This document shows positions 1,243 to 40,612 of a DNA stretch of 40,612 nucleotides, piece by piece (positions within the stretch are counted from its first letter, which is position 1; every line of letters starts with the position of its first letter). The stretch comes from Escherichia virus TH16: sequence record MT446393.1. The stretch is one strand, 5' to 3'. Below the pieces are notes generated by a model, which was not told the origin of the DNA, did no database searches, and saw only the letters and a list, made by a program, of their open reading frames with translations. The position numbers and the translations under genes are program-made.

Positions 1243-3924
1243 TTAAGCGAATGCAAAGTCTGAAGACAAGATGTCTTCGATATTCAGTTTACCTTTCTTC
1301 GGAAGCTCAGGCAACTTGTCGCGCTGACTCTCGTGAAGCTGGTATTCGAACTGCTCGTAGAAGTCCAGCAGCACATCGTTGTCGCGGTAGGTCTCGACCA
1401 TCGTCTCACGGACTCCACGGAACAGATACTCAGCGTCAGCCGGGATGGTCCCGAAGCTATCGTGAATCACTGCGAATGACACCACGCCATACTTGCGGTG
1501 CGTGTGGACTACAGTCTTGCGGAGGTGGCTACCATCTTGTGAGTGGACGAAGTTCGGGCTAATGCCTGACTCCTGCTTGTGCTTGTCCAGCTCTTTCTTC
1601 GTGCCTTTGTTGACTGTAGGCTGAAGGTTGAATGACCCTAAGAACATCAGGTTCAAACGTGTGGTATCCTTCTTGCGGTATTCCTGCCAGACCGGGAAAC
1701 CATCAGGTGTGACCCAGTGTACCGGAAGGCAAGGCTTCAGGATTTCGCCAGTCTTCTTGTCCTTCACTTCAGCAGCCAGCAGCTTGGCAGCGCCTTGAAG
1801 CCACTTCATCGCGTCTACCGCAGCAACTACGGTCACACTCACAGCCTCCCAGATCATCTTAGCCATGAAGCGAGACGCTTGGCTTGGCTCAGTGAACATA
1901 GCGCCAGACCCTGAGTCAATCGCTGGCATCACGATGTCCTCGTAAACTTGGTCTGCGAAGCCGTACTCTTTCGACCCGTAGGCCAGAGTCATGACTGAAC
2001 GCTTAGTGACCTTGCGTGACATACCGTAGGTCAGCCACTGACGGGCCAGCTCGCGTGTCCCCAGCTTGATACGCTCGGTAATCTCACCAGTTTTCTTGTC
2101 CTCGTGAGTCACCATCTCGTTGTCCGTACCGTTAACCAGCAGGACTTTAAGCTCCTCCTCAATTCGATCAGACACGATGCGGTAGATGTCTTGAACCTTA
2201 CCGGATGGCGTTAGGTTTACTGCATGTCCACCGATGTGGTCACGAAGCATCGCGCTGAAGTGCTGAATCCCAGAGCAGGACCCATCGAACGCTATCGGCA
2301 GCGAGCAGGAGTAAGACAGGCCGTGGTGCATTACGCCAGCATACTCGAAGCAGAACGCGAGGAAGCAGAACGGAGAGTCTACCTTACCCCACCACTCAAT
2401 GCTGTCCATCGGTGCCTTAGCAGCAGCCATGATGTTAGCGTGGTTGTCTTCCACCCACTTGATGCGCTCCTCGAAGGTGACTTTATCGACACCCGCACAG
2501 TTTGCACCGTGGACCTTCAGCCATTTAAAACCATCAGCACCAATAGGCTTGCCGACTGCCAGAGTCAGGAGACCCTTCTGCATGTCGTTACCCTGAGGGT
2601 TGAACATCGGTACAGCGTAGACGCGACCCCGCCAATCCATGTTGTATGGAAACCAGATGGCCTTGAACTGAGAGAACTTGTTCGCTTGGTTGACGATAAA
2701 GCTCAGTGACAATCTGCGTGACTGTCTGGCCTTCTCGCGGCGATAGATACCAGCAGCAGCCTTCTTCCATGCCTTGAGTTCTTCTTCAGTCTCACCCGCA
2801 TAGTCCTCAGGCTTCAGTGGTTCCATCTGAGGGATGTCATCAATAGGCGTGTTGTTCAGCTTCTCGACCATGTTCACCACGTCCAGAACCTTCTTGTTAA
2901 CTTTCCAAGGTGTATTCTGGATGATGTTCACAGCGTCATAGACTTCAGGCATGTACACGTCTTCGTAACGTGCTGCCGCAGACTTGGAACCTAAGCGAAT
3001 CAGCGGCAATGGTCTGCGACCTTTGGCCCAATACCCACCTCCTACGACACCAGTCCACGGCTTAGGTGGAACTACGCAAGGTTGATAGACTGGCGCGATA
3101 CCCGCAAGGCTGAAGCCACGTTGTGCCATCTTCTTGACCCAGAATTCTGACAGGTGGACCATCTCTACATCAGCCGCTGCATTGCCAGCACCATAACGCT
3201 TAAGCTCGACCAATTGTGTTGACTGGATGACAATCTCAAGCATCTTGATGCCAACGTGTACCGCCTCGGTAGGACTCCAAGTCCCCCACGCATCTTCCAG
3301 TTGACCTTGCTCCAGCATGGAGGCCTCAACCGCTTGCATGTAGGCTTTCTTGTAGGATGCCCCGGCTCGCTTGTTCAGGTTCTCAGCTATCGCCTTTTTG
3401 AAGTGCTCCTTCTCCTGATCACGGATTCGACCGAAGCGGATTTCATCCTCAAGTGTGCGACCTATCGCGGAGGCCATCGGTGTAATCGGTATCCCTTCAG
3501 GCTTGACCAGCTTGGAGAGAATGACCTTCAGTATGATAACCGCAGCAGACTCACAGGAGATGCGCATAGAGCGGTCCTTGACGGCCTTCTCTTCAGTGCT
3601 CAACATGGTGAACGCTACGCTAGGACGAGAGGTTGACAGCTTCCCGTCTTGACCTTCATGCCACTCCTTTACGGCTTGCGCAATCTTAGGGACCAGAGTC
3701 TGCATCAAAGGTTTGGCGACCTGATTGTCTGCCAGTTCCCCGCGCTCAGTCTGTCGCTCAAGGTTCTTGATGAAACGTCGCTCGCCTTCAGTGTATGCCT
3801 CATGCTCAAGCTGAAGCTGTTTGACTGCAAGGTCCTGCCCGTAGTGGTCAGCCAGCAGGTTAAACGGCTCAATGGCGTTTGACACATCAGAGAAGTCGTG
3901 TTTGTCAATAGAGATGACGCTCAT
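1243..3924 (-). CDS. gp1: Single-subunit DNA-dependent RNA polymerase (893 aa)
   Basis: Clear similarity to T7/T3 RNAP along the whole length (e.g. FPYNMDWRGRVYAV, ESGISPNFVHSQDGSHLRKTVV, C-terminal FAFA). Confidence 0.97.
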   Translation of the reverse strand: MSVISIDKHDFSDVSNAIEPFNLLADHYGQDLAVKQLQLEHEAYTEGERRFIKNLERQTERGELADNQVAKPLMQTLVPKIAQAVKEWHEGQDGKLSTSRPSVAFTMLSTEEKAVKDRSMRISCESAAVIILKVILSKLVKPEGIPITPMASAIGRTLEDEIRFGRIRDQEKEHFKKAIAENLNKRAGASYKKAYMQAVEASMLEQGQLEDAWGTWSPTEAVHVGIKMLEIVIQSTQLVELKRYGAGNAAADVEMVHLSEFWVKKMAQRGFSLAGIAPVYQPCVVPPKPWTGVVGGGYWAKGRRPLPLIRLGSKSAAARYEDVYMPEVYDAVNIIQNTPWKVNKKVLDVVNMVEKLNNTPIDDIPQMEPLKPEDYAGETEEELKAWKKAAAGIYRREKARQSRRLSLSFIVNQANKFSQFKAIWFPYNMDWRGRVYAVPMFNPQGNDMQKGLLTLAVGKPIGADGFKWLKVHGANCAGVDKVTFEERIKWVEDNHANIMAAAKAPMDSIEWWGKVDSPFCFLAFCFEYAGVMHHGLSYSCSLPIAFDGSCSGIQHFSAMLRDHIGGHAVNLTPSGKVQDIYRIVSDRIEEELKVLLVNGTDNEMVTHEDKKTGEITERIKLGTRELARQWLTYGMSRKVTKRSVMTLAYGSKEYGFADQVYEDIVMPAIDSGSGAMFTEPSQASRFMAKMIWEAVSVTVVAAVDAMKWLQGAAKLLAAEVKDKKTGEILKPCLPVHWVTPDGFPVWQEYRKKDTTRLNLMFLGSFNLQPTVNKGTKKELDKHKQESGISPNFVHSQDGSHLRKTVVHTHRKYGVVSFAVIHDSFGTIPADAEYLFRGVRETMVETYRDNDVLLDFYEQFEYQLHESQRDKLPELPKKGKLNIEDILSSDFAFA

Positions 3925-7195: not shown

Positions 7196-8962
7196 CTAGT
7201 GGAGCGTAACGTATGACCCTAGTCCAAGCTCGTCGTCCGTATCGTTAGTTACCCGGACCCCATTGTCCCAGAACTCAGTGTGGATGGACTCGAAGCCTTT
7301 CCGTGGGTTCTCCATCTGTTCCTCCAGCCACTCCTCAGTGACTTCACGTTCGCCTTTGTTGGCATCCTTCGCCATAGACTCAACGAAGAACTGTACACCG
7401 ATAGCCAGCGCATCAAGTCGGTCATCGTGTGCCAAGGCTCCACGCTCACGAGAGATACGGGTCATCTGGTAGAAGAGAGAGTAGATAGGGTTACGAACAC
7501 CGTCCTTATCAGAGGCCGACTGGTAGTCTTGGACGATAGCAGCAGCGTTAACGATAAGTCGGTGAGACCCCATGATAGGCTCCAGAACGTCACAGATGCG
7601 GAGTTCTTTCTGACCCTTACTCTTCACTTCAGTTACAGCAGCAGGATGGATACGGGCCGCTACAGGCTTGAATAACTCAAGGTACATACCATCACCGAAG
7701 TTACCCTCAATGACGTATTCGTTTACCTTCCACTTACGACCAATCTTAGCCAAGGCTTCTAGCGTAGAGTCCTCATAACCACCACGCATACCTCCAACTT
7801 CCATAGCGAAGATGTAGCCGTTGAGCTGATACAGTACCGCATAGCCAGTTTCATCCTTACCACGACCACTAGGGTCAATGACCAGAATCTTCTGGGTGTA
7901 CGAACTGAAGGCAGAACCTACAGTCTGATACGTGTGGTATGAGTCACCCATGAGTCCAACGTTAGGAACGTCCTCACGCTTGTTCTGAGGGTTTGGCAAC
8001 CATTGGTAGACCATTGGGCTGGACGCTGGGTCCAAGTCCGCTACGATAAGGTCACGGAGCTTCAGAGGGTACTTCTCAGCATCACTCAGGTTCGGGTTAA
8101 GCATGAACTGCAGAGCGAAGCCAGCTTTACCATAGGACAGCTCACGTTCCTTCAGGTCCGTATCATCGAATCGTACCTCATCGGTCGGACGCCAGTAGAA
8201 GGGCTCAGGGTCCTCTTCAAGCTCTGCCTGAAGCATCGGTGCCAGACGGTCGCCGTAAGACTGCCAGTCCTTCCTGTCGCGTGGATAACGAGCCGGCCAG
8301 ATAGTAGTGGTATATCCACGGCCTTCAAGCTCACGATACAGGGTCATCTCGTTCTGAGGAGTACCCAGATAGATGATTGTGCCTCCAGGCTTCAGGATAG
8401 CGTCGAACTCTTTAACAAGCTCTGACAGACGGTCTCGTGCAGCCTGAGTCGCTGAGTTGTTAGGAACCTCCACGTCATCTGCAATCAGGATGTCAGCACG
8501 ACTACCAGTCAACTGACCAGTGATACCAACGGACTTAACCGAAGGTGAGTGGTCTGGCTTGGCTGGCCCAACGTCGAAGCTGATAACCGCATCTCGCTGT
8601 CTCTGCTTAGGTTTGAGTTCCTGAAGCTGAGGCATGAGGTCGATGATTCGCTTGATGAAGATGGAGTTAGCATCTGCTCGTTCCTTTGAGGCCGACACAA
8701 TCATGAACTTCAAGTCTGGGTTGTTCCATAGTTTCCAGACCACGAAACCACAGGTCAGAAACGACTTGCCAATACCACGGAACGCCTGAAGGATGAAGCG
8801 GCGATTATCCCCAGCAGCCAGCTTCTTACACATATCTATCTGGCAGCGGGTTGGAACCGGAAGGCTAAGAGCTTTCCAGAGAACGAAGATGAAGAACACG
8901 AAGTCGTCCCTCATCCTTTGGGTCATTTCTGCCTGTCTTTCAGCGGGTGTTTTCTTAGACAT
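7196..8962 (-). CDS. gp19: Terminase large subunit / DNA maturase B (588 aa)
   Basis: Length and sequence similar to T7 gp19; ATG start and TAG stop checked. Confidence 0.95.
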
Positions 8963-20373: not shown

Positions 20374-20396
20374 AGTCCCTATAGTGATAGTTAAGG
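20374..20396 (-). promoter_or_regulatory. Phage RNAP promoter (phi13-like)
   Basis: Minus-strand CCTTAACTATCACTATAGGGACT. Confidence 0.7.
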
Positions 20397-20420: not shown

Positions 20421-22778
20421 TTAGACGGAACGAGCTTTCTTAGCGTATGACGCCTCCCAGCCACACCCAACGATTGACACTGGGGTAGGATAGTCGGACT
20501 CTAAGGTTAGACTCGTGGTTAATGCGTTACCATTCATAGCGAAGCGATACTGCCCGTCACCAATGTTTGTAGTCCCGATGGTTTGCTGCCCAAGGGTGTA
20601 CCCGTTGAAGGTATTCACGAACTCCCGCTCACCGTTTCTGACAATGAGTCTCAGAGCGCCAGTGTCTTTGTAGTTGACCCAAGCCCGACGAAGTTGTAGA
20701 CGACCAGTGTCTTCAGACTGAGTGCCACTATCATCTTCAATCTTAATCAGGAACCGTGAGAACTTGTAGGACATCAGATAGGACCGTCCGATGAACACTG
20801 TGCGTCCTGACCAATCGCCGTTGAGGATAACCACAGTAGAGCTACTGGTCAAGTCCCCAAGGTCCACATAAGCACCCTGACTGTCAATCAGATAGTACCG
20901 ACCGGGAGACGGAGAGTTGCCACCATAAGCAGCACCAATGTCAACCGTAGTCTTATAGGTGTCAGAGTTGTATGAGCCATTTGGTATTACCATAGACACC
21001 TTGGAGTCAACGTGGAGTCTATACGGCTCTAATGGAAAGTCAGTTGCCTCCTTGATGAACTTAAGGTGCTCAAGGTCCACACCGCCTTGGTGCTGACGAA
21101 CAATGAACATGGTAGAGCCAATCGACGCAGACGCCAGAATCTTATCAGCTTTAGGGAACTCCCAGTGCGACCAAGAGGCTTGAAGTTGTACGCCGTCCTT
21201 AAACAAGAACTTGTAGATGTAGATTCTGTTGTATGCACCTGTAGAGTTGACGCAGATGTAGTTCTCAGTCCCTGTACCTTGAATGTCAAACACCCCGTTA
21301 GGGATATAGGACAGTACGTGGCCAGTAGTATCATCGGCATCCTTCACGTCAGACACATCTGCTACAGCGAAGTATCGCTTAATGCTGGTGAATGACCCAC
21401 GAGGCGCTGAGAAGAAGACTGAGCGTCCTACAGCGAACGGTCTGGCATTATCACCTAAGGCAAACTCTGAGCCTACATCAAGCTGGATAGACTTCGAGGT
21501 AAGGACCCCAGAGCTTGTCATCACGAACTGAACCTCATCCGACCAAAGTAGTAGCTGCTCGCTAAACGGAACGGCGTACTTAAGGATTGAGATACGAGGG
21601 TGACTTACAGCTACATCAATAGGGTCATCATCACTCAGTGTCGCCACACTCTTAGGGAAGAACGCAAAGTAGCTGGCTGAACGGCTCATAATTACGTTCT
21701 CACCCGACAAGAACCCAAGTCTGTTCCTGTAGAAGAACACATCATTAATCGCAGCATCCACGAAGCTAGGCATAGGGTTTGTGTCATCGTTACCAGAACC
21801 ACGCTTGGACCAATCCAGAGTTTTGAACTCAAAGGAGCCATCAGACTGTCTTACCAGAGCATGTGGCATTGTGGTGACATCGAACCCAGTGACAACTCCA
21901 GGCTCCACTGTCTCCTTCCACGTCTTAGTGTTGGAGTCATACATCACGTAGTATTCATCGGCGCTACTGTTTGTCTCACCTTGAATCTTAATGATATACC
22001 CATTAGGAGCTGCAAGAGGTAGTTTAGAGATTGTCTGCACAGTGTCTAGGACTGGGCTTATTAGCTGGTTAGCGTAGCCATCCTCCGTCTCCACTGAGTT
22101 AATGTCGGTCCCTGAAGGAGCTGTGATTAGCAGGAAGCCAGACCCAAGGTCAAACGTGAAGGTAGGATAGGCAGTAACAAGAAGGTCTCTCAGAGCTGCA
22201 CCAATGGCTTGAGCGTCCACCTTAGGTGGGTCATTCTCGGCATCATTACCTGCTGGTAGCTTATGCGAGACCTTAACTCCACCATTGATTCCAACCTTAA
22301 GGGTTCGACCATACTGTCCACCACGCAGGTTAATTAAAGCCCGTGCTTTGCGGTTATAACCAGAGTGTGACTTCTCGCTTCCACCTTTGACGACAACCTT
22401 ACGGTTAACGACGAACGTATAGTCTGCCACGGTAACGACACGGATGTCATCTCGCGGGTTGGAGGACTTAACGTAGTCTACCTCACCGGACACTGAGTAT
22501 TGATTGCCACTCAAGTCAACTACCTGAATGTTGGACCCATTGAACACTATGTAATACTGCTCATGCGCGTCACGGTTAATCAGGTGGAACTTAGGGTTGC
22601 TCCCAACGTCGATGCTAAGACGTCGTTTGAAGACTGTAGGTGGGCGCTTCTGGAGTCCATCACTCTCGGATGACCAGCAGTTAACCTGTGCCTCGCCTTG
22701 GTCTGAGAACCTCAGTATATCAGGCTGTTGGCTAATGCCACCTTTAAGGTTCTTGATTGATTGAGTAATTAGTGGCAT
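20421..22778 (-). CDS. gp12: Tail tubular protein B (785 aa)
   Basis: Size and position match T7 gp12. Confidence 0.9.
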   Translation of the reverse strand: MPLITQSIKNLKGGISQQPDILRFSDQGEAQVNCWSSESDGLQKRPPTVFKRRLSIDVGSNPKFHLINRDAHEQYYIVFNGSNIQVVDLSGNQYSVSGEVDYVKSSNPRDDIRVVTVADYTFVVNRKVVVKGGSEKSHSGYNRKARALINLRGGQYGRTLKVGINGGVKVSHKLPAGNDAENDPPKVDAQAIGAALRDLLVTAYPTFTFDLGSGFLLITAPSGTDINSVETEDGYANQLISPVLDTVQTISKLPLAAPNGYIIKIQGETNSSADEYYVMYDSNTKTWKETVEPGVVTGFDVTTMPHALVRQSDGSFEFKTLDWSKRGSGNDDTNPMPSFVDAAINDVFFYRNRLGFLSGENVIMSRSASYFAFFPKSVATLSDDDPIDVAVSHPRISILKYAVPFSEQLLLWSDEVQFVMTSSGVLTSKSIQLDVGSEFALGDNARPFAVGRSVFFSAPRGSFTSIKRYFAVADVSDVKDADDTTGHVLSYIPNGVFDIQGTGTENYICVNSTGAYNRIYIYKFLFKDGVQLQASWSHWEFPKADKILASASIGSTMFIVRQHQGGVDLEHLKFIKEATDFPLEPYRLHVDSKVSMVIPNGSYNSDTYKTTVDIGAAYGGNSPSPGRYYLIDSQGAYVDLGDLTSSSTVVILNGDWSGRTVFIGRSYLMSYKFSRFLIKIEDDSGTQSEDTGRLQLRRAWVNYKDTGALRLIVRNGEREFVNTFNGYTLGQQTIGTTNIGDGQYRFAMNGNALTTSLTLESDYPTPVSIVGCGWEASYAKKARSV

Positions 22779-22787
22779 AGGCCCTCC

Positions 22788-23015
22788 TTAAATCATACTC
22801 ATTAGGACATATCCTTCAGCGATGTCACCAACGTCAGCAATGTGGACAACCTTACGCGCTACCTGTTGTCCAGTATACCCGTTGTCCCACTCATTCAGGA
22901 TAAGCCAGTCGCCAACCTTAAAGTCCCGGTAGTTAAGTCTCAGCTCTGCTGTCTTTAGACCTAGCTGTACCGGACCAAAGTGCTGGCGGTGAATCTTCAG
23001 GTTGTGACTAGCCAT
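22788..23015 (-). CDS. DUF3850 / ASCH-like small protein (75 aa) inserted between gp11 and gp12
   Basis: KIHRQHF...LKTAELRLNYRDFKVGDWLILNEW pattern typical of DUF3850/ASCH-fold proteins; ATG overlaps the gp11 stop. Confidence 0.65.
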   Translation of the reverse strand: MASHNLKIHRQHFGPVQLGLKTAELRLNYRDFKVGDWLILNEWDNGYTGQQVARKVVHIADVGDIAEGYVLMSMI

Positions 23016-23581
23016 TAGTCCCTCCCGATGTCAGACATCATGTTGTAGCGACCAGTGTCCATCTCGTACTCCATAACCTGCTGATAGAGTTCTTCTTCCT
23101 GCTCACGAAGGTATAGCTCTGACTCTGGGCTACCGAAGAACTTAGCGTTGAACTCACGGCTAGCTTTAGTGACGATGTAGTCCCTGAAGACCACAGGCAT
23201 CTCAGAGAATGGTTTCATCTCCACAAGCTCTACCGTGATAGGGTCAGTGAAAGTGGTTGACTGAGTGGATAGGTCGTACAGGTATCCACCCATGTTGCTG
23301 TAGTAGCTGGTGGCCCCAGTGGTCATTACACGAAGGTATGATGGCAGGAATCTAATCCTATTGTCTTGGACATCAGGTGTCAGGACAGCAGCTTCGTTGA
23401 TGTTAAAGTTCCATCCTTTAGCTTGGACCTGACGATTGACACGATGCAGGATACGTTGAGCGTTCGAGACGTCAGCGTTTCCCTCGTCAAGCTGTAGGAC
23501 TGCTGGTTCACCGATAGCAGCTAGCATATCGTTGATGGCGTCTAAGTCATCGTTAGTATTCAGTGGAATGTATTGAGCCAT
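23015..23581 (-). CDS. gp11: Tail tubular protein A (188 aa)
   Basis: Similarity to T7 gp11 (AIGEPAV, KGWNFNI, YIVTKASREFN, MEYEMD); AAGGAGG RBS. Confidence 0.9.
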   Translation of the reverse strand: MAQYIPLNTNDDLDAINDMLAAIGEPAVLQLDEGNADVSNAQRILHRVNRQVQAKGWNFNINEAAVLTPDVQDNRIRFLPSYLRVMTTGATSYYSNMGGYLYDLSTQSTTFTDPITVELVEMKPFSEMPVVFRDYIVTKASREFNAKFFGSPESELYLREQEEELYQQVMEYEMDTGRYNMMSDIGRD

Positions 23582-23594
23582 AGGCCCTCCTTAA

Positions 23595-23632
23595 GCAAAA
23601 ACCCCTCAAGCACCCGAAGGCACCCAAGGGGT
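23595..23632 (-). terminator. T-phi-like intrinsic terminator between the capsid gene and gp11
   Basis: Minus-strand hairpin CCCCUUGGGUGCC-UUCG-GGUGCUUGAGGGG (with G-U pairs) followed by UUUUUG. Confidence 0.7.
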
Positions 23633-23637
23633 TTCAA

Positions 23638-23928
23638 TTAGTTTGTGAAAGATATGTTGAAGGAACGCACAGGCGAACCGTCATACCCAACAATCACCAG
23701 ACCTTCCACGCCAGAGGTGGCCTTGAAGTAGAGACTGTTGGTTCTACGGGAGTAGCTAACACCATCAGGCGTAGTCACCTCAAGCAGCGACCAATCGGTC
23801 ACATCTGAAAGCTCAGGGAAGTCAACCTTCAGGCTGGTCCCAACCGTAGAACTGTACGTCTCTAAGGTAGGACCCTCTGTAGAGAGGGCCTTAAAGGTCG
23901 TTAACCCCCCAGCGCCGCTGTGAAAACC
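23638..23928 (-). other. gp10B: Candidate programmed -1 frameshift region: slippery GGTTTTC (23922..23928) plus a 94-codon open -1 frame (10B-like capsid extension)
   Basis: Slippery heptamer 6 codons before the 10A stop; -1 frame has no stop for 94 codons and ends at TAA just upstream of the terminator. Confidence 0.6.
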
Positions 23929-24950
23929 AGTGCGCCTGCCGCTTCTGGACGCAGACCTCCGTGACCCATAGCGTACTTACCAACAATCAGGTCGCCCTGG
24001 GCATCGACGTCACGGTCACGTTCCAGCGCCAAGTCACGCAGCTTCACAGTACCCACAGCAGAACGGTGAGAGAACAGACCCACAACGTTGTCCATAGCAA
24101 CTTTAACGTCGCCAGCAGCAGTCGCCGGGAATGCGTGTTTCTGGCCGGAAGCGATAGTGATACCATCGTCACCACGGGTCTCACCAGCACCACCCTGTAC
24201 CAGATGCGGAACCTCAACAACAACGAAGCCCATCACGTTACGGATGTTACCAGTCTCTGGATCAATCAGCGCAGCATAGTTAGCAGCGTTCGGCATCAGA
24301 GCCGCGAGGATTGCAGAGTAGTTGTCCGGCGTGGTGTAGAAGTAACGGTCTCCAGCAGGAACGTAGTTGGAGGTCAGCTTCGCACGGGCAATGGTCAGTT
24401 GACCGATGATTGCTTCGCCCAGCTTAGCCGGAGTGTTCAGATCGGCTTTAGTACCAACTTCAAGTACTGACGCAGTGCCAAGACCGGCAATATTCTCGTT
24501 GGATGAAGCCGGGAGGTTACACAGGAGAGCCATTTCAGCCAGAACCGCACCATCAGCAGCGATAGCCAGAGCTTCACCCAACTGGTTGGAGTACTCGCCA
24601 GCCACGTCATAGTGGTTCATCGCGTCTTCAATGTCGAAAATCATCACATCGGCAGTCAGCAGACCATCAATGGTAATCACTTTCTCGGTATGTTTGATAC
24701 CTTTACGCTTATCGGACAGTCGCTCACCCGGAGCTAGATACACACCGGAGGTGCGACCCATGACCGGGAACTGAGCAGACTTACCGTTCTGAATGGTACG
24801 GACAATATGCTTGTCAGCAGTTACAGAGCGGCGAGTGAATGCGGTCAGGACTTCACCAGCAAATACCTTCAGGAACAACGCAAGAGCGTCGGAACTGGAT
24901 TTGCCTTTACCTTGGTCTGTACCAATTTTCTGACCCGGAACGTTTGCCAT
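23901..24950 (-). CDS. gp10A: Major capsid protein (349 aa)
   Basis: Strong similarity to T7 gp10A (KHTEKVITIDGLLTADV, ALMPNAANYAALIDPE, HRSAVGTVKLRDLALER). Confidence 0.97.
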   Translation of the reverse strand: MANVPGQKIGTDQGKGKSSSDALALFLKVFAGEVLTAFTRRSVTADKHIVRTIQNGKSAQFPVMGRTSGVYLAPGERLSDKRKGIKHTEKVITIDGLLTADVMIFDIEDAMNHYDVAGEYSNQLGEALAIAADGAVLAEMALLCNLPASSNENIAGLGTASVLEVGTKADLNTPAKLGEAIIGQLTIARAKLTSNYVPAGDRYFYTTPDNYSAILAALMPNAANYAALIDPETGNIRNVMGFVVVEVPHLVQGGAGETRGDDGITIASGQKHAFPATAAGDVKVAMDNVVGLFSHRSAVGTVKLRDLALERDRDVDAQGDLIVGKYAMGHGGLRPEAAGALVFTAALGG

Positions 24951-25064: not shown

Positions 25065-25087
25065 TCTCCCTATAGTGATAGTTTAGT
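25065..25087 (-). promoter_or_regulatory. Phage RNAP promoter (phi10-like)
   Basis: Minus-strand ACTAAACTATCACTATAGGGAGA; predicted TSS near 25070. Confidence 0.8.
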
Positions 25088-26066: not shown

Positions 26067-26089
26067 TGTTCCTATAGTGATAGTTTAGG
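26067..26089 (-). promoter_or_regulatory. Phage RNAP promoter (phi9-like) overlapping the gp8 stop
   Basis: Minus-strand consensus match ...CTAAACTATCACTATAGGAAC. Confidence 0.7.
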
Positions 26090-39377: not shown

Positions 39378-40338
39378 CTGGTGTCTCCTCCATGTAGGTG
39401 ATTTGACAAGCCCACCCATTGTAGTAATCAGGGTCTGACTTAACGTTATCTGTGAACTCGGACATAAGGGCGCGACTAATGTTAGTTGCGGAGACCTCCA
39501 TCCCGTTCTCAAGCATCACGTCAAATCCGATGACCATGCCCTCGTTGGCTAGGCCATCCGTACCCCACACAGGGCGCACAACATGACCGTCTGCCTCTTC
39601 GCTCGGCTTCATCTTCCACATGCCAGACTTCTTGCCACGCTTCCAGCGTCCAAGAGGGTCTTTAACTACCAGACCTTCTTGCCCATCTGCGCGCTTCTCT
39701 TCGTACAAATCCTGAAGAGACTCAAGGTCGTACACTGTATGACTCTCAGATAATACCCAGTCGATTTCCGGGAAGTATTTCTGGAGGAGAGGGACGATAG
39801 CTTCGGCCTTCAGGCGAGTGACGCTATGGATAGGGCCTTCGGCTTTCGGGTCGGTGATGACGTTAAGGTCCACGATACCGTAGACGACCACCTTGATATG
39901 GGCTCGGTCCAGCCTGAACTGAGTAGTCTTGGACTTGAGGTCCCAATCGCCATCGTGGAAGTCGTAGTTTTTAGACTTGACATACTTCGTGCGAATGAGA
40001 CCTGAAGACGTATTGAAGTCCACTCCTTTTACCATGACCTCGCCATCAATCATCAGGCCAGTGCCTTCGTATCCAGCCTGCTTCAGGAACCACAGCCAGT
40101 CGCTAGACTCGGTCTCCCAGAGGTCCTCTCGAGAAGTGTCCAGCCAGCTCAGGGCCGGAAGTGACTTAGACTCACGGCTCAACCATTGGGTCTCACCAGT
40201 AGGGAAGACCGGGAGGTTCAACCGGACACCATCGTACTTCACTTCAGCTTCCAGCGACCCAGCAGCTTCCAGAGCCTTCTTAACGCCAGACTCAGAGTAA
40301 TCTACAGCGCGGTGCGGGTTAGTTTTAATAGTTGTCAT
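39307..40338 (-). CDS. gp1.3: ATP-dependent DNA ligase (343 aa from the ATG); its 5' part is duplicated at 1..394
   Basis: KYDGVR adenylation motif and strong similarity to T7 ligase (MKPSEEADG, DGSLRHPSF..RGTEDNP); GGAG RBS before the ATG at 40338. Confidence 0.95.
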   Translation of the reverse strand: MTTIKTNPHRAVDYSESGVKKALEAAGSLEAEVKYDGVRLNLPVFPTGETQWLSRESKSLPALSWLDTSREDLWETESSDWLWFLKQAGYEGTGLMIDGEVMVKGVDFNTSSGLIRTKYVKSKNYDFHDGDWDLKSKTTQFRLDRAHIKVVVYGIVDLNVITDPKAEGPIHSVTRLKAEAIVPLLQKYFPEIDWVLSESHTVYDLESLQDLYEEKRADGQEGLVVKDPLGRWKRGKKSGMWKMKPSEEADGHVVRPVWGTDGLANEGMVIGFDVMLENGMEVSATNISRALMSEFTDNVKSDPDYYNGWACQITYMEETPDGSLRHPSFYQWRGTEDNPTVKI

Positions 40339-40612
40339 TGTGTTATCTCCATGTGTCGAGTTGGTTAGCGAGACAGTTAAGGAAGCCTGTGGCAGTGTTG
40401 TACAGTACGTCTTCATCGCGGTGTGCGAAGATCTTAAGCGCGAAGATGTTACCAGCTCGGTCCTCGACTTGAAGTCTCATGAACTCTTTCCGAAGATGCG
40501 CCTCGTACCAGTCCTGCTGTATCACGCAGAAGTCTAACTGATATAGTCGGTTACACGCTGCTTTGAAAGCGTTTAGGTTGCCACTGTAAAGTCTGCCCAT
40601 AGCGTTATGCTC

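Follow-up and report, generated by a model that had tools for sequence, protein, structure and literature searches.

What is a gene of the DUF3850/ASCH type doing inside the tail operon of a T7-like phage, at a junction where T7 itself has no gene? The question is raised by a small open reading frame of Escherichia virus TH16 (sequence record MT446393.1), whose 40,612 nucleotides were analyzed at full length and are referred to here as the window. The window corresponds to a T7-like genome in reverse orientation, with about 96% identity in a 7-kb test region to Kayfunavirus (K1F-like) phages, among them Pkp-1, PE3-1, and JSS1. An initial annotation of the window, made from the letters of the sequence, had reported a 75-residue protein with a DUF3850/ASCH pattern, whose gene is flanked by those of tail tubular proteins A and B. 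The reported coordinates and description of this open reading frame were found to be correct.

The window ends with an exact copy of its own bases 1–668 (39945–40612; 0 mismatches), so that the unique genome is 39,944 bp long. It has the appearance of an assembly that was circularised or that came from a concatemer. Compared with the usual T7-like map, the window is permuted: the RNA polymerase is encoded at 1243–3924 and the large terminase at 7196–8962, both on the minus strand.

A gene translationally coupled to gene 11

The gene and the elements that surround it are as follows.

22788..23015, minus strand: DUF3850/ASCH-fold gene of 75 codons plus stop, with an ATG start and a TAA stop; equivalent of gene 11.05 of phage CR44b
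23015..23581, minus strand: gene 11, tail tubular protein A (gatekeeper/adaptor), 188 residues; Pfam Tube, PF17212, E 2.6e-46
20421..22778, minus strand: gene 12, tail tubular protein B (nozzle), 785 residues; Pfam Phage_nozzle, PF25675, E 0
23020..23026, minus strand: Shine-Dalgarno sequence GGGAGGG of the DUF3850 gene, within the final gp11 codons
23013–23017, minus strand: TAATG, the gp11 stop codon overlapping the ATG of the DUF3850 gene
22776..22790, minus strand: TAAGGAGGGCCTATG, comprising the DUF3850 stop codon, a Shine-Dalgarno sequence, and the gp12 start codon

The matches to the Tube and nozzle families show that the neighbors of the gene encode tail tubular proteins A and B, as had been claimed, and the corresponding gene 11/12 junction of T7 is indeed devoid of any gene, consisting of a 23-nt gap. 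The context of the start codon reads GGGAGGGAC-TAATG-GCT, the A of the ATG being common to the stop codon of gene 11 and to the start codon of the DUF3850 gene. Because of this overlap, the final codons of gene 11 serve as the Shine-Dalgarno sequence of the DUF3850 gene, which is translationally coupled to gene 11. At the other end, the TAA stop codon is followed by GGAGGG and, ten bases on, by the ATG of gene 12. The 15-mer TAAGGAGGGCCTATG has exactly two copies on the coding strand, located at the start of gene 12 (22776–22790) and at the start of gene 11 (23579–23593). The ribosome-binding site of gene 11 is different in K1F, SH3, EcoDS1, and yong1 (agtgagaggagactt-ATG), indicating that the duplication of TAAGGAGGGCCTATG is specific to the lineage of the TH16 window.

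A fusion of gp11 to the DUF3850 protein by a -1 frameshift, similar to that producing 10A/10B, was considered and rejected since a TGA codon closes the DUF3850 frame 18 nt before the ATG, with no slippery heptamer between them.

Late transcription by read-through

The initial annotation had proposed that the gene is expressed late and at a high level. The following transcription signals bear on this proposal.

23598..23635, minus strand: Tphi-like intrinsic terminator just upstream of gene 11, with a 17-bp stem and a U run after it (folding energy -25.2 kcal/mol, z -4.3)
25069..25085, minus strand: phi10-like phage promoter core, the nearest upstream of the 11/11.05/12 unit; exact match to TAAACTATCACTATAGG
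20378..20394, minus strand: phi13-like phage promoter located after gene 12, with one mismatch to the core; the promoter annotated at this place in EcoDS1 is phi13
26071–26087, minus (coding) strand: match to a phi9-like promoter core, from the promoter-core scan

The promoter core TAAACTATCACTATAGG, which was derived from the promoters annotated in PE3-1, had 11 matches on the coding strand for about 0.1 expected by chance. The hairpin at 23598–23635 occupies the position of Tphi in T7, between gene 10 and gene 11, and a terminator at the same place is annotated as phiTE in PE3-1, EcoDS1, and Ro45lw. No phage promoter was found between this terminator and the phi13-like promoter at 20378–20394, and the scan of the window for sigma-70 promoters revealed no excess. 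With a terminator upstream and no promoter before the phi13-like one, genes 11, 11.05, and 12 are co-transcribed late by the phage RNA polymerase, through read-through. The expression of the DUF3850 gene predicted from this arrangement should be comparable to that of gp11 and gp12, as for genes 11 and 12 of T7, rather than to that of the capsid gene. Late expression is therefore supported by the map, whereas expression at a high level is not, the gene being located beyond the terminator.

Upstream of the Tphi-like terminator, an open reading frame of 54 codons (23638–23802, minus strand) is present between the terminator and the major capsid gene (23901–24950), and it was called as a gene in an SRA-derived contig. 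A tblastn comparison detected this open reading frame in Ro45lw, at 93% identity, and gave no match in K1F, SH3, or EcoDS1. A hypothetical gene is annotated in this region in PE3-1, and T7-like phages encode the 10B frameshift extension there.

Assignment to the DUF3850 branch of the ASCH fold

The protein (8.5 kDa, pI 6.4–6.9) matched DUF3850 (PF12961) with a score of 64.4 bits for a threshold of 22.9 (E 1.1e-17), the alignment of residues 4–73 with model positions 2–76 of 77 covering the whole model. It also scored above the threshold of the ASCH family (PF04266; 25.1 versus 21.2 bits), in agreement with membership of the ASCH/PUA-like superfamily. Further matches were obtained with PHROG 986 ('RNA-binding protein'; E 8e-33) and with the solved structure PDB 3IUW (E 2e-9 with the single sequence and 2e-25 with a profile). 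The AlphaFold model had a pLDDT of 97.8 when it was computed from 55 diverse homologs, the alignment on which the model used here rests, and a pLDDT of 43 with 19 close homologs alone. Foldseek comparisons to viral models retrieved DUF3850 and ASCH proteins from many unrelated phages. The ASCH octapeptide GxKxx[E/T/S]xR is present in the window protein as G19-L-K21-T-A-E24-L-R26 and maps as follows.

22938..22961, minus strand: codons 19–26, GLKTAELR, the ASCH octapeptide GxKxxExR (Lys21, Glu24, Arg26)

Together, profile matches, homology to a solved structure, and the predicted structure confirm that the window protein has an ASCH/PUA-like fold and belongs to its DUF3850 branch. The pattern initially recognized from the sequence letters thus corresponds to a fold retrieved both by profile and by structure prediction. 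A search of 1.8 billion representative sequences for DUF3850 returned about 3,200 clusters (50% identity), and this branch of the ASCH superfamily is enriched in phages. Rfam gave no match anywhere in the window.

A known gene of Kayfunavirus genomes

Searching with the protein by tblastn retrieved 464 phage records, about 168 of them at least 60% identical and 131 at 95–99% identity. Among the matches listed in these identity bands, the genomes were of the Kayfunavirus type and the gene was beside the tail tubular gene. About 165 GenBank phage records carry the gene at the gene 11/12 junction, and contiguous coverage of a gp11-ORF-gp12 query was obtained in 163 records. The position, the length, and the TAATG coupling of the gene are the same in EcoDS1, PE3-1, LM33_P1, and about 160 other Kayfunavirus records, most of which are 95–99% identical. 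Public records label the gene as hypothetical, 'RNA-binding protein' (RefSeq), 'DUF3850 domain-containing', or 'activating signal cointegrator', and as gene 11.05 in CR44b. The gene is already known at the annotation level and is not new. The initial annotation was silent on these existing labels (gene 11.05, RefSeq 'RNA-binding protein'), on the close relatives that are free of the gene, and on the presence of a Tyr residue in place of Asp29.

A divergent form is gene 11.05 of CR44b, whose product is 45% identical to the copies of other Kayfunavirus phages and has lost several family-invariant residues, with SIP in place of the N-D-R motif and the substitutions E24D and Y47I. In CR44b (HG818823.1; L002 3001–3225), the first 15 nucleotides of gene 11.05 and the flanking genes 11 and 12 are still similar. 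No other phage record in the collection harbors this variant.

One record, MT350292.1 ('Enterococcus phage EFA-1'), indicates Enterococcus faecalis as the host. It contains a 40.7-kb genome of the Kayfunavirus type, which is 95% identical over the gene 11/12 junction and has this DUF3850 gene. The Gram-positive host stated for EFA-1 looks doubtful.

The gene is absent from close relatives

The gp11-ORF-gp12 query was split in two by K1F, SH3, and Ro45lw, in which the corresponding span is about 230–240 nt shorter. In K1F, the junction runs from GGGAGGGACTA straight to the ATGCC of gene 12, which is exactly the sequence left after removal of 237 nt, from the ATG of the DUF3850 gene to the ATG of gene 12. 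SH3 and Ro45lw have other final gp11 codons (GGT CGA GAC) and a separate Shine-Dalgarno sequence. Of the 60 best matches to the K1F junction, at least 26 records display the gene-less arrangement; in K1F and at least 25 close relatives, exactly these 237 nt are missing. The gp11 and gp12 proteins of K1F are 97–98% identical to those of the window, and the window gp11 displays the same 97–98% identity to the gp11 proteins of K1F, SH3, and EcoDS1. Since nearly identical tail proteins are found in K1F without the gene, the tail does not need the DUF3850 protein. These results indicate that the gene is dispensable and accessory.

The gene had been described as inserted in the tail operon, which is only one way to read the junction. 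More distant phages, including Pectobacterium LET1, Enterobacter phages, and CR44b, carry the gene, and for this reason the K1F state looks like a secondary deletion within the K1F clade, the gene appearing to be ancestral in the genus. The GGGAGGG-TAATG junction still present in K1F also suggests a deletion.

The location of the gene between genes 11 and 12 and its translational coupling to gene 11 raise the possibility that it encodes a tail assembly factor or a minor protein of the virion, whose synthesis would keep pace with that of gp11 because it acts on the gp11-gp12 tail. We consider this explanation highly improbable. K1F-type phages with gp11 and gp12 about 97% identical to those of the window do without the gene, which is thus not present wherever the cognate tail is. 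The CR44b record reports mass-spectrometry matches for gp8, gp9, gp10A, gp11, gp12, and gp14, and none is noted for gp11.05; this absence is weak negative evidence because the protein is so small. In addition, siphophages, myophages, and prophages commonly harbor members of the family, in early-gene contexts.

Comparison of the window and EcoDS1 with K1F, SH3, and Ro45lw did not identify any real partner gene co-varying with the DUF3850 gene, in a comparison that involves few genomes and is confounded by phylogeny. The genomic context therefore does not point to a pathway. An open reading frame of 57 codons (39810–39983) had the same pattern of presence and absence, but it is located inside a larger open reading frame and was taken as spurious.

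In the Kayfunavirus vB_HpaA_yong1, a Hafnia phage (MK610268.1; L025 1001–1680), the DUF3850 gene is followed by a 146-codon open reading frame, labeled 'endonuclease', which overlaps the start of gene 12. This additional gene makes the gene 11/12 junction a recurrent landing site for accessory genes. Endonuclease genes are found elsewhere in Ro45lw (genes 13/14 and 15/16) and in EcoDS1 (genes 13/14). The possibility that the DUF3850 gene is itself a mobile homing cassette was ruled out by the lack of a nuclease domain.

Purifying selection and the D29Y allele

Pooled pairwise comparisons of 14 Kayfunavirus copies of the gene gave a dN/dS ratio of about 0.16 (about 0.03 for gp11); the ratio obtained for gp12 was set aside as unreliable owing to a misalignment of L021. 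Copies differing at up to 24 of the 75 residues retain every family-invariant residue. Judged from these substitution patterns, the gene is under purifying selection and functional in the Kayfunavirus lineage. Its conserved position, its dN/dS ratio, and its own Shine-Dalgarno sequence establish that the open reading frame is a real gene rather than a chance one.

The residues invariant in DUF3850 are H4, K21, E24, R26, N28, D29, R30, G35, D36, E42, and G49, and G19 of the octapeptide is also family-invariant. Ten of these eleven residues are present in the window protein, the exception being position 29.

22929..22931, minus strand: codon 29, TAC (Tyr) instead of the GAC (Asp) of the family, as part of the N-D-R motif, from the alignment of homologs

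Of the 176 homologs, 174 have Asp at this position, including all 26 close ones and 148 of the 150 distant representatives, in contrast to the Tyr of the window (gta on the plus strand). D29Y is the sole difference between the common Kayfunavirus allele and the window allele, and the nearest loci (L010–L013) differ from the window at residue 29 alone. The phage collection contains no record at least 99% identical to the window protein. The exact Tyr29 allele was also found in the assembly of SRR11772943, which possibly originates from the same isolate and hence does not provide independent confirmation. Since Asp29 is nearly invariant, the window copy may be impaired; the substitution has probably weakened or inactivated it, to judge from conservation at this position. 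Membership of the family is beyond doubt by homology, and the doubt concerns whether the D29Y allele works.

Other departures from the consensus are sporadic: K21Q (P0009), a frameshifted C-terminus (P0017), and R30L (L018). In a rival explanation, the window gene would be an inactivated passenger, the family being functional and the D29Y allele inactive and heading for loss as in K1F. Besides the near-invariance of Asp29, this explanation would account for K21Q, R30L, the frameshift, and the replacement of NDR by SIP in CR44b, as well as for the clean deletion of the whole gene in the K1F clade. It is less easily reconciled with an open reading frame that is intact, retains its coupling signals, and is one substitution away from the consensus, and the Tyr29 allele may stem from a single isolate. 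We regard it as unlikely. The combination of D29Y, K21Q, R30L, the frameshift, the CR44b variant, and the K1F deletion indicates that the gene, although useful, is readily lost.

Neighbors and fusions of DUF3850 proteins

Elsewhere, DUF3850 genes are located in early or replication gene clusters, in contrast to the window copy, which is found within the tail operon of a podovirus. In a P2-like phage, the gene adjoins a DNA methyltransferase gene and the P2-type A gene; in a Listeria phage, it is close to genes for SSB and a Holliday-junction resolvase; in a Jedunavirus, it is part of a run of small open reading frames. When the additional regions of longer DUF3850 proteins were scanned with Pfam, most had no match. 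Two metagenomic proteins, P0219 (140 residues) and P0257 (148 residues), combine an N-terminal Lar restriction-alleviation domain (PF14354; 38.7 and 34.2 bits, respectively, for a threshold of 28.6) with a C-terminal DUF3850 domain, and we found no mention of this link of DUF3850 to anti-restriction in the literature examined. The other fusions involved DUF551 (9 of 87), DUF7415, and, in one case, a dATP/dGTP pyrophosphohydrolase. In prophages, DUF3850 has been reported to be fused to a CTP-binding ParB-CTPase fold, for which an anti-defence role was suggested (PNAS 2025; bioRxiv 10.1101/2025.10.10.680097). This fusion and a mention in an ICE are the sole functional remarks on DUF3850 that were found in the literature; searches for DUF3850, for the Kayfunavirus 'RNA-binding protein', and for phage 'activating signal cointegrator' did not retrieve any functional study. 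The early and replication neighbors, together with the Lar, ParB, and pyrophosphohydrolase fusions, point to nucleotide, nucleic-acid, or anti-restriction biology rather than to virion structure.

These associations are the basis of a serious rival to an enzymatic function, namely that the protein is a non-catalytic ASCH reader or binder, recognizing a modified DNA or RNA base or a host protein, and acting in counter-defence or in the alleviation of restriction. The Lar fusions, which score above the Pfam threshold, and the ParB-CTPase fusion of prophages would fit such a role on DNA as well as they fit a role on RNA, and the patchy presence of the gene is typical of counter-defence genes. On the other hand, the strict invariance of the Lys/Glu/Arg/Asp/His set is more typical of an active site, and the window protein had no match at E <= 1 with the PADLOC and NCBIfam models. 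Late expression would also be poorly timed for shielding the entering DNA, and no modification is known in T7-like DNA. A reader function is in our view on the unlikely side.

A candidate role in cytosine chemistry

Among the explanations considered, we give about an even chance to a stand-alone, non-structural accessory gene whose product would act on N4-modified cytosine through an ASCH-type Lys/Glu dyad, the D29Y copy of the window being probably weakened. According to this proposal, the 75-residue protein would form a small pocket lined by H4, K21, E24, R26, N28, D29, R30, D36, and E42. The Lys/Glu dyad of GxKxxExR would bind, and probably hydrolyze, N4-modified cytosine as GKER-type ASCH proteins do. 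The modified cytosine could be that of a free nucleoside or nucleotide, or one flipped out of an RNA. The pI of the protein fits better with a pocket for a small ligand than with a broad nucleic-acid-binding surface. The role of the protein would then be in nucleotide or RNA handling, or in counter-defence, late in infection, rather than in tail assembly.

The catalytic positions are conserved in the window protein. G19, K21, E24, and R26 are intact, and HMMER and hhalign align the octapeptide with K21/T24/R26 of YqfB, so that the catalytic Lys and the Thr/Glu residue both have a counterpart. The hhalign alignment to YqfB had a probability of 87% and comprised 36 columns, covering residues 13–47 alone; with HMMER taken into account, the aligned part is limited to residues 12–48 (YqfB 12–49). 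The Lys and the Glu (or Thr) of the ASCH octapeptide have been reported to be essential, the Lys/Glu dyad being essential in TthASCH, EOLA1, and TRIP4, and ac4C was removed from tRNA by each of the 19 ASCH proteins assayed, a set that includes no DUF3850 member (bioRxiv 10.64898/2026.02.27.708502). The structure tree of the ASCH survey required at least 80 residues aligned to YqfB, a length for which a 75-residue protein cannot qualify. The C-terminal helical segment that provides a third catalytic residue in other ASCH proteins (Glu74 in YqfB and Tyr81 in TthASCH) has no counterpart in the window protein, which ends at residue 75, and ZmASCH and TRIP4 do not hydrolyze free ac4C despite the presence of the GKER motif. 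Because of these two observations, the assignment of N4-modified cytosine as the ligand is based on homology.

A more specific version of this proposal can be formulated by analogy, in which DUF3850 proteins would be phage-specific minimal ASCH erasers of the N4-acetyl, or another N4-acyl, group of cytidine, would target host ac4C34 of tRNA-Met or acylated cytidine nucleotides late in infection, and would recognize their substrate through the N-D-R motif. To our knowledge, ac4C is known in enterobacterial hosts solely at the wobble base of elongator tRNA-Met. This extended version is speculative and we consider it quite unlikely as a whole.

Comparison with known systems

As a genome feature, the gene is an ordinary accessory open reading frame of K1F-like phages, which belongs to a named Pfam family, has a solved homolog, and matters little in itself. 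Its remaining interest is that of a convenient test case for DUF3850, ASCH proteins having recently been shown to be N4-acetylcytidine amidohydrolases and tRNA ac4C erasers. ASCH-type N4-acyl-cytidine chemistry is, by analogy with these enzymes, the most concrete idea for the function of the gene. Natural variants are provided by K1F (deletion), EcoDS1 and PE3-1 (consensus), the TH16 window (D29Y), and CR44b (degenerate motif). The existence of phages with, without, and with a point-mutated gene in a genetically tractable T7-like background makes it convenient to search for the function of DUF3850 there.

Like the homing-endonuclease and other small open reading frames of T7-like phages, the gene is small, dispensable, and located at a gene junction of the late operon. 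Unlike the homing-endonuclease open reading frames, it encodes no nuclease domain, and its conservation throughout the genus reflects descent, in contrast to a scattered occurrence. The ASCH ac4C amidohydrolases and erasers (YqfB from E. coli, PDB 9KYF; TthASCH from T. thermophilus; EOLA1) are about 30–45 residues longer than the window protein, and DUF3850 differs from YqfB, TthASCH, and EOLA1 by its additional invariant residues, N-D-R, G-D, and E42. The solved homolog 3IUW, an 83-residue 'activating signal cointegrator' of Enterococcus faecalis from structural genomics, has the same single-domain size as the window protein, and its family shares with the window protein all of the invariant residues except D29, replaced by Tyr in the window.
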